64,000 nt of DNA from Verrucomicrobiia bacterium (GTDB taxonomy: Bacteria > Verrucomicrobiota > Verrucomicrobiia > CAIQCK01). Position 1 is the first letter of the stretch, and each line of letters starts with the position of its first letter. Under the pieces are notes generated by a model, which was not told the origin of the DNA, searched no databases, and saw only the letters and a list, made by a program, of their open reading frames with translations. The translations under genes were made by a program, and so were the position numbers. The stretch spans positions 126,325 to 190,324 of the forward strand of contig JBAYFL010000003.1 in assembly GCA_041667205.1 (NCBI GenBank). The letters run 5' to 3'. Below are positions 54,008-55,381 of this stretch, one piece after another.

Positions 54008-54102
54008 CCGTTATCGGATTTCGCGAAAGAAGTCAGGCACAGCTTTCACCACCATCCGTGCTGGCTTCGACTAATACGCATTCTCCATCAGATAATGTCA
54101 TT

Positions 54103-54954
54103 CTACTGTCCATGTTTCTTGCGGAATGGAAAATCTAAAGGACCGCTGGGCGTAAATAATCGTATGGCAAGATTGTATTCAGTATCTGATGGAACATTTT
54201 TATCATTTGCCCCGAAACGAGCGAATATTTTGACCCACGCTCCGGGTAACAACTGATATGCTGACTCAGCAAGATGTAGTTTGTGATCAGGTGGCACTGA
54301 GAAAGCCTGGGTAGAAATATATTCGTCCCCAAAAAGCCTAGGACTCAACCTGTGCAAATACCAACCGGCAGGGGCTACTATGCCAAACTGGAAATCTTGA
54401 ATTTGGATAGTTCGTTCTTCCGAATTCTTGATAGAAACGTCGAATCCAGACCAGTGTGGCTGTTCTTGTGTGCTTTCAACCAGAGGATTCGCAACTATTC
54501 GAGTTCCGTTAACAAAACACTCTAATGTTGGATTAAAGAACCGTTTAGCCTCCTTTGGATTCTCCACAAACCATTTAACGCGTTTGAAAAGCTCAGACTT
54601 CAAATCGGTGATGCGATTATCGTGGACGATGTGAGGATAATGTTTGAGATCAAACGGGATATCATCAGCTTTTGCAGTTAGAAGAATAACGCGCTTCCCC
54701 AGAGCGTGCGCATACCCAACCTCATAGAACACGTTCGGATTACGACCTGTCATTTCCGCAATAATTAAGTCTGCCTTTGCAATCTGGTTGTAAACTCTTT
54801 GCAGGATGCTCTCCTCAAAAATCTGCTCGTCAACACGTTCGCAATGGGCGTCAGCATCACCGCAAGCCGCCTTGATGCCGAGTTCATAAAGGTCGTCGAA
54901 GAATTTCTCAAACGGCATCAGTGTGAAAACGAATGGTTTTGGCTGAGTTTCCAT
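54103..54954 (-). CDS. Nucleoside 2-deoxyribosyltransferase-like (NDT/TIR flavodoxin-fold) domain protein with unknown C-terminal domain; candidate defence effector
   Basis: Residues 1-120: 'FVFTLMPF..' and '[32 protein letters not shown]' (NDT core with conserved Glu). Gene GC is about 45% against about 64% flanks. Confidence 0.5.
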   Translation of the reverse strand: [283 protein letters not shown]

Positions 54955-55381
54955 AATTCGGAGCGATTAATAGTTTGCCGTGCTTAGGGCGACGGTGAAG
55001 CTGCTGTTGGTGGTGATGCCGGCTTGCCGCCAGTGGGCGTCGTTCGTGGGGCCGGCGTCTATGACCTCGCCGTTATGGAGTTGGCTTGGATCGAAGATTG
55101 GCATGTCTCGGCCCTTTCCTCATGGGCGGTTTCTACCGCAGCAGGCGAAGAAATGGAAACAAATTCTCCGCCCCGAAAAATGCGAAAGGACGCGAAAGGG
55201 GGGAAGCTGTCAGTTGTCGGCTGTCAGCTTTCAGCTTTGGGCAAGCGACGGTCGGAGACCGCCGGCGTAGGCCGGGTCCCCGACCCGGCGTAACCGTCAT
55301 CGCCACGTGTGGGCACGTGGCCTACAACGAGATCGGCGGTCATAGACCGCCGCTACAGGATCGGCTGACGGCTGATTCTCG

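Follow-up and report, generated by a model that had tools for sequence, protein, structure and literature searches.

The type VIII Thoeris effector ThsI consists of a 'CMP hydrolase' domain (CMP, cytidine monophosphate) followed by TPR repeats and responds to cyclic ADP-ribose (cADPR) (10.64898/2025.12.03.692087). The nucleoside 2-deoxyribosyltransferase (NDT)-like effector of retron Ec86/Eco1 acts by abortive infection and depletes NAD+ (PMC13276650), a precedent for NADase activity of an NDT-like domain in immunity. Vulcan (NIR/DUF4062 + HEAT) places an N-glycosidase-class effector and a variable protein-binding module in one polypeptide; defences of this type are standalone, patchily distributed and mobile, and the catalytic Glu is essential in these comparators. 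DSR1/DSR2, SEFIR and SpbK are further defences in which a single protein combines a sensor with an NAD+-depleting effector. The canonical NDT, DNPH1 (Rcl) and MilB enzymes of the PF05014 class, by comparison, are single-domain proteins of ~150-170 aa that serve nucleotide metabolism. A recent systematic survey of TIR proteins deliberately set the standalone TIR-type proteins aside, and this class is therefore under-examined. Here we analyse a gene for a 283-aa protein with an NDT-like N-terminal domain and a C-terminal β-sandwich (54103..54954, minus strand, stop codon included) in a 64,000-nt stretch of DNA from a Verrucomicrobiia bacterium (assembly GCA_041667205.1, contig JBAYFL010000003.1, positions 126,325 to 190,324 of the forward strand), hereafter the window.

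We read the gene as a conflict gene that stands alone and moves horizontally, and propose, with confidence only slightly above even, that its product is a single-protein abortive-infection defence in which the β-sandwich senses an invader and thereby activates an N-glycosidase of the NDT class, with depletion of NAD+ or some other nucleotide as the outcome. Several observations make a defence role plausible: the effector domain falls in a clade with ThsI-like proteins, a PADLOC TIR model matches it, some members are carried by prophages and other mobile elements, the gene occupies a variable slot, and a conserved effector is paired with a hypervariable C-terminal domain. We infer the N-glycosidase activity, its substrate, the sensing function of the C-domain, oligomerisation as the activating step and protection against phages. 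In such a mechanism the highly conserved NDT/TIR-class N-domain would act as an N-glycosidase with E78 as its catalytic residue and, when active, would destroy a nucleotide that the cell needs, NAD+ being the first choice and a (deoxy)nucleoside monophosphate ((d)NMP) or a different nucleotide the second. Specificity would lie in the hypervariable β-sandwich, recognising an invader-derived protein or ligand, and ligand binding would either release the N-domains or assemble them into an active oligomer. The first-pass annotation of the window had called the gene a candidate undescribed standalone defence effector. That it is standalone, foreign and non-metabolic has held, and a defence role is plausible on the indirect evidence given below.

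The N-terminal domain and its immune relatives

A confident AlphaFold2 model built on an alignment of 52 sequences (predicted local distance difference test score, pLDDT, 89.8) has two domains, an α/β domain comprising residues 1-131 and an all-β domain comprising residues 144-280. The N-terminal domain (residues 1-135; 54550..54954, minus strand), a putative N-glycosidase effector, is a DrHyd-type Rossmannoid domain of the NDT/TIR class and displays the Rossmannoid/flavodoxin-like fold, in which the third strand is followed by a helix bearing a Glu (G-x-E-x-G motif). This residue, E78, is invariant in the 52 aligned members and is the predicted catalytic residue; its codon, placed by reading the position off the sequence, lies at 54721..54723 (minus strand). 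The motif around E78 aligns with Rcl 'ADVVVAEVTQPSLGVGYELGRAVALGK', and E78 therefore falls on the Glu of 'GYELG' (Rcl/DNPH1), the nucleophile of DNPH1/Rcl. PF05014 matches residues 33-107 marginally, at 31.4 bits against a gathering cutoff of 28.8, with several close relatives scoring just under that cutoff, and similarity of the N-domain to PDB sequences of the NDT/DNPH1/MilB class is likewise marginal (E ~1e-3). The Pfam models for TIR, DUF4062, SIR2 and SEFIR give no match to the 283-aa protein at E <= 1. The PF05014 match, the Rcl alignment and the invariance of the Glu in the family alignment bear out the NDT/TIR-class fold with a conserved Glu that had been recognised at first pass.

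The substrate may be considered in terms of strand 1. In NDT and DNPH1, a Tyr from this strand hydrogen-bonded to the catalytic Glu enforces 2'-deoxy specificity, while TIR NADases have Phe or Ala where NDT and DNPH1 have the Tyr that contacts the Glu (PMC11204291). The near-invariant aromatics in strand 1 of the present family are F8 and F10, not Tyr, as read from the family alignment; alignments to NDT/DNPH1 do not reach strand 1. A strand-1 Phe, if equivalent to the NDT/DNPH1 Tyr, would weakly favour a ribo-substrate such as NAD+. The choice between NAD+ and a deoxynucleotide bears on how NDT-class enzymes entered immunity.

The PADLOC CBASS-type 'Effector TIR' model PDLC00733 matches the N-domain at 7.7e-10, the match being confined to the effector-domain part of the model (profile positions 286-353 of 388), and the PADLOC model for ThsB also matches the protein. 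Four phage protein families in PHROGs, with function unassigned, match the N-domain as well, phrog_3634 being the best at 6e-23, far ahead of the phage NDT family phrog_7995 at 1e-3. Phrog_3634 and related PHROGs (e.g. Streptococcus phage SM1 gp11) are uncharacterised lysogeny-module accessory genes that share ~25-35% identity with the present protein in the N-domain only and differ from it in their C-terminal parts and in their length of ~220 aa. The much better fit to phrog_3634 than to an NDT family, and the match to a ThsI-like effector described next, count against an enzyme of metabolism or nucleotide sanitation akin to NDT, DNPH1 and MilB, with the β-sandwich a structural or oligomerisation appendage and transfer incidental, a reading that we regard as quite unlikely. 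The present protein also departs from the canonical enzymes in its extra C-domain, which makes it a two-domain protein of 283 aa, and in having no metabolic context.

Comparison of the family with a ThsI-like protein (L142:3453-4658) by hhalign gives a probability of 97.4% (E = 1e-11), which thus places the effector domain in a clade already implicated in immunity; the motifs 'R-x-DE', 'AD..VAD...N.N..YE.G..HAL' and 'FDL.H' are common to both. Like ThsI, the present protein is a member of this NDT-like clade with its effector at the N-terminus, a non-catalytic C-terminal module and an association with mobile DNA. The two are ~26-31% identical over ~95-170 residues, with tblastn giving 26-29%, and they differ in the second module, a TPR sensor in ThsI and here an all-β sandwich with no TPR Pfam match. 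ThsI works with adjacent TIR (ThsB) genes through cADPR, whereas no TIR (ThsB) gene lies in the window neighbourhood of the present gene or among the top neighbour families in 80 loci (the best 80 of 377 from a pattern-limited genome scan with one genome per species, from which all neighbourhood figures are taken). If a defence role is confirmed, the effector clade of type VIII Thoeris would also work without a signalling partner.

The plasmid-borne relatives of the N-domain, named 'TRAFs-binding domain-containing' or TPR proteins, do directly adjoin TIR-domain genes. An NDT-like/TRAFs-binding gene stands beside TIR gene(s) at L142:3453-5745 (E. coli IncP plasmid pKMi029_2) and at L143:2414-4658 (a Vibrio coralliilyticus plasmid), and 'TRAFs-binding' NDT-like proteins beside one or two TIR genes are found on plasmids of many Enterobacterales, which would fit a wide carriage of type VIII Thoeris by plasmids. 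Full-length members of the present family were not found in the plasmid collection, which yielded N-domain relatives only.

The kinship with ThsI raises the alternative of a component that signals in trans, either an orphan ThsI-like effector with a β-sandwich that would bind a small-molecule alarm signal (e.g. a cADPR isomer produced by a TIR or cyclase from another locus) or a ThsB-like signal generator that would serve a distant effector. We rate this as quite improbable. It draws on the N-domain clade common to ThsI-like proteins beside TIR genes, on the matches to both the CBASS-type effector model and the ThsB model, and on the second, distant NDT-like paralogue that lies next door in some loci; set against these, the 6 kb on each side of the gene contain no conserved TIR, cyclase or other partner in the 80 loci.

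The remaining comparators diverge further. The retron Ec86 system needs a reverse transcriptase and multicopy single-stranded DNA, neither of which is found at the present locus: there is no reverse transcriptase among the window neighbours and none conserved in the 80 loci, and an Rfam search over 53800-55600 returned no match except a chance snoRNA (E = 0.39). The 80 loci likewise contain no conserved cyclase neighbour of the CBASS/Pycsar kind. Membership of a retron, CBASS or Thoeris operon was rejected on these grounds, namely that no reverse transcriptase, cyclase or TIR neighbour is conserved and no noncoding RNA was found. Vulcan-type defences share with the present protein the one-polypeptide layout, but their effector belongs to a different family, with no PADLOC match, and the present protein is much smaller (283 aa) and carries a single β-sandwich. 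An effector and a variable module in one standalone mobile gene, as in the single-protein abortive-infection class, is what the present locus displays.

The hypervariable C-terminal β-sandwich

The C-terminal domain (residues 136-283; 54106..54549, minus strand) is an all-β, Ig/macroglobulin-like sandwich and a putative sensor or binding module. In pairwise comparisons of the same 52 proteins, the N-domains average 72% identity and never fall under 59%, whereas the C-domains average 26%, with the most divergent pair at 13%. In protein P0238 the C-domain is recognisable at the profile level alone, and in P0236 and many others the C-terminal part is wholly different, i.e. the C-domain has been swapped. 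A fold search with the C-domain found generic β-sandwiches only and nothing resembling the SAVED, STING, SLOG, Macro or TPR sensors, and all matches in a BFVD structure search were to the N-domain. A sequence search with the C-domain for alternative fusion partners retrieved a single 95-aa fragment only. The β-rich C-terminal part without a recognisable family, as first described, is thus confirmed by the AlphaFold2 model and the fold search.

This asymmetry between the domains is immune-like and informs the choice among the readings. A C-domain that is hypervariable or swapped speaks against a metabolic enzyme. Domains that sense small molecules tend to be conserved, but this one averages 26% identity and is unlike the sensor folds named above, both of which argue against signalling in trans. 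Signalling in trans would, on the other hand, suit the 561-aa relative P0252, in which the NDT-like N-domain (66% identical) is fused to a C-terminal 2H phosphoesterase (DUF1045 / 2',5' RNA ligase superfamily), a domain class linked to the processing of ADP-ribose (ADPr) or cyclic-phosphate derivatives (PMC9503650).

Should the single-protein defence that we favour be confirmed, the family would offer a naturally diversified set of β-sandwich sensors, all joined to an unvarying effector, for the study of how immune specificity evolves. A more specific proposal, which we consider rather unlikely, is a widespread, unrecognised one-protein receptor-effector in which the Ig-like sandwich reads phage proteins and the ThsI-clade N-glycosidase depletes a nucleotide other than NAD+ (a deoxynucleoside mono- or triphosphate, dNMP/dNTP, or a CMP-type nucleotide). 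If true, it would be a small-scale equivalent of the type VIII Thoeris effector that acts independently of a signal, with thousands of members in >15 phyla.

Foreign composition, variable slot and family spread

The GC content of the window falls from ~0.63-0.69 to 0.40-0.47 across ~54000-54950, an AT-rich tract (54000..54950; GC ~0.40-0.50 in fine and coarse profiles) that takes in the gene and its 3' intergenic spacer. At GC 0.445 against a window average of 0.613, the open reading frame (ORF) 54103..54954 is the lowest of all 852-nt windows in the stretch (z = -5.0). GC at its first, second and third codon positions is 0.55/0.35/0.43; the genes around it (for the propeller protein, the 1333-aa protein, Dak1, DeoC and SucC) have third-position values (GC3) of 0.83-0.90. 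The deviation is strongest at the third position, a signature of unameliorated foreign DNA beyond mere amino-acid composition. The NDT-like gene is a compositionally foreign single-gene islet; the dip to ~45% GC over exactly one gene that the first-pass annotation had reported is sharp in both the GC profile and GC3.

The islet lies between a gene for a secreted propeller-like protein (53060..54007, minus strand) and one for a 1333-aa secreted HZS_alpha/FGE-sulfatase protein (55382..59383, minus strand), flanks on which the ORF list and the domain search agree with the earlier description. Orthologues of the propeller gene (46-86% identity) are found in 30 metagenomic loci, none of which has the NDT-like gene, and this absence from 30/30 syntenic relatives is a further point against a metabolic enzyme. 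As delimited by blastn of syntenic loci, the segment without DNA homology to the syntenic relative L117 spans 54031..55330 and constitutes a variable slot. The slots syntenic to window positions 54008-55381 are L116:2950-4290, L117:5600-7000, L118:70-707, L128:5499-5667 and L129:1430-1508. The site is empty in L128 and L129, where the 1333-aa and propeller genes are 167 nt and 77 nt apart, respectively. In L117 (~80% identity) the slot is taken up by an unrelated 359-aa ORF of low GC that is Cys-rich at its N-terminus and has no Pfam match, in L116 by a ParE toxin gene with a small upstream antitoxin-like ORF and a hemerythrin-domain ORF, and in L118 by yet another filler. The 3' end of the 1333-aa gene is directly duplicated over ~100 nt in L116, and the copies bracket the toxin-antitoxin (TA) cassette in what looks like an attachment-site (att)-like scar. 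Between the 1333-aa and propeller genes, this Verrucomicrobiia lineage has a hotspot of integration. No convincing target-site duplications or inverted repeats were found at the islet edges.

Members of the family are also found within mobile elements. IMG/VR contigs carry full-length members among terminase, portal, capsid, primase and endolysin genes, and the family gene of L087 is a lone counter-oriented insert among phage genes. Two full-length paralogues with different C-domains (5323-6195 and 9001-9846) lie 3 kb apart in L106, in a recombinase-rich element with serine recombinases and a Rep-like gene, and in temperate phages of Streptococcus and Staphylococcus the lysogeny modules include distant relatives of the N-domain. 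Such placements, together with the ParE TA addiction module in the same slot of a relative, would be compatible with cargo that serves the mobile element itself, whether as a counter-defence enzyme degrading the host's immune nucleotide signals or as an addiction or superinfection-exclusion factor. We hold this to be decidedly unlikely: in most of the 80 loci the gene has no adjacent phage or integrase genes and stands alone among chromosomal housekeeping genes, and no anti-defence family was matched. Prophage-encoded morons in such a position are commonly defence genes, moreover, so that members so placed overlap with the single-protein defence proposed here.

A word-index search retrieved 3,623 proteins, mostly full-length and ~280 aa long, and an exhaustive search retrieved 660 clusters (50% identity) at E < 1e-30 and 18,496 at E < 1e-3. 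The family is patchily distributed in >15 phyla, and the best 80 loci include Verrucomicrobiota, Acidobacteriota, Planctomycetota, Bacteroidota, Chloroflexota, Bacillota, Gemmatimonadota, Pseudomonadota, Desulfobacterota, Cyanobacteria and a member of the Candidate Phyla Radiation (CPR). The gene is AT-richer than its own flanks in 79/80 loci, by 10.5 points on average, and its GC3 is under that of its neighbours in 72/80; low GC is a family trait. If the defence role is confirmed, this would be a very compact (283 aa) single-gene defence family common in Verrucomicrobiota, Acidobacteriota, Planctomycetota and Bacteroidota, phyla that are poorly covered by screens centred on E. coli and Bacillus.

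Clustering of every ORF of 70 aa or more lying up to 6 kb to either side of the gene in the 80 loci brought out no conserved partner, the biggest non-self cluster being present in 6 loci at variable distance. The orientation of flanking genes is random and the median gaps are 158 and 206 nt, and the gene therefore looks monocistronic. Genes of nucleoside salvage or nucleotide metabolism are neither conserved nor enriched as neighbours in these loci, in agreement with the earlier claim that metabolic partner genes are lacking and with homologues lying outside nucleoside-salvage operons. Along with the patchy spread and the atypical composition in 79/80 loci, this speaks against a metabolic enzyme. 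HerA was considered as a partner and rejected as not general: it lies upstream in L019, L021 and L033, which represent one lineage with HerA 83-94% identical, at a distance of 80 nt in two of the three and 746 nt in L033.

Several points weigh against a defence function. The protein is nearer in sequence to NDT/DNPH1/MilB than to canonical TIR proteins and has no Pfam TIR match, and NCBI labels the product identical over 283 aa, from a Verrucomicrobiia metagenome-assembled genome (MAG), as a plain 'nucleoside 2-deoxyribosyltransferase'. No family member with a solved structure and no experimental study of any member was found. The β-sandwich is a putative sensor, and the variability of the C-domain could reflect relaxed constraint rather than an arms race. 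The 150 nearest neighbours are mostly unrelated housekeeping genes (ribonucleotide reductase (RNR), 5-enolpyruvylshikimate-3-phosphate (EPSP) synthase, IF-2B-like), and defence-type neighbours (HerA, RecD-like, PDC-S68 and S_4TM) are a minority; the defence-island setting that had been anticipated is not typical. Adjacent ORFs match 173 PADLOC families per 150 ORFs, against 51 per 127 ORFs lying >7 kb away, a difference that is suggestive of defence enrichment but not rigorous, being a crude proxy inflated by helicases that match multiple models. Finally, the two-domain architecture was not found as a full-length system or candidate in PADLOC v2 or in the literature searched. The same result leaves the label 'undescribed' applicable to the architecture, but not to the effector-domain clade, which is known.

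A few individual loci depart from the general pattern. A distant (~29% identity) NDT-like paralogue adjoins the family gene at L036:11107-11493 and L077:9196-9630. At L107:9008-9964 / L108:1374-2330, a gene with a guanylate/adenylate-cyclase domain (PF00211) lies 155 nt downstream of the family gene on the same strand, with a contractile injection system cluster 5 kb further on, in one genome only. Proteins P0258 and P0259 (MFA7006443.1 and MFA7006444.1), which fall in the same 90% cluster as the present protein, are two partial pieces of 68 and 215 aa from a 4.6-kb contig of another Verrucomicrobiia MAG; a frameshift, a pseudogene or an error of assembly could account for the split.

The upstream reading frame and flanking features

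Upstream of the NDT-like gene lies a 45-codon ORF (54967..55104, minus strand) that has a GA-rich Shine-Dalgarno-like motif and ends 12 nt before the NDT-like start, just as first described. A translationally coupled two-gene toxin/sensor pair had been proposed from this arrangement, and we find it hardly credible. By tblastn over 85 loci, the ORF occurs only in L001 and L002, which belong to the same genome, and it is upstream of no other family member; in the closest homologues (~64% identity), a gap of only 62 nt separates the NDT-like gene from the gene upstream of it. The ORF is host-like in GC (0.587) and GC3 (0.76, against 0.43 for the cargo gene) and lies outside the AT-rich tract. It has no Pfam, PADLOC or NCBIfam match, no gene is called there in L001, and chance ORFs are abundant in DNA of 61% GC (77 ORFs of at least 40 aa per 10 kb). 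The two-gene idea is thus unsupported because the ORF is not conserved, its GC3 is host-like and the 62-nt gap leaves no room for it, and on the same grounds the ORF was ruled out as a partner. We judge it to be a chance or lineage-specific frame in host-type intergenic DNA, outside the unit.

The NDT-like gene itself, taken from the ORF list, encodes a product 100% identical to P0001/P0260, although some gene callers choose M13 as the start (P0001, 271 aa). The M1 start is supported because 'PKPFVFxLMPF', which lies 5' of M13 and forms strand 1 of the fold, is kept family-wide and because the NCBI product is likewise 283 aa long. Promoter and terminator scans gave no more than shuffled expectation. 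In the upstream intergenic region, two copies of the palindromic repeat CGGCGGTCnnAGACCGCCG (55246..55352; repeats D2/I2) mark host-type DNA rather than cargo. This 19-nt palindrome is found at 29851-29869, 55246-55264 and 55334-55352, giving six both-strand matches against 0.02 expected, and is probably a dispersed host repeat resembling repetitive extragenic palindromic (REP) elements.

The 1333-aa neighbour has an unusual multidomain make-up, with a hydrazine-synthase-α middle (PF18582, 4e-32), an FGE-sulfatase domain at the C-terminus (1e-39) and weak CXXCH motifs of the cytochrome-c kind, and is 83-85% conserved in relatives. The sole other low-GC patch in the window, 10750-11620 (GC ~0.50 over 850 nt), coincides with a 219-aa ORF (10962..11621, plus strand) with a signal-peptide-like N-terminus. 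The CHASE3/PAS histidine-kinase-like gene at 59562-61865 (minus strand) has a GC of 0.564 and a GC3 of 0.68, compared with ~0.85 for the GC3 of its neighbours, which hints at a second, older acquisition.

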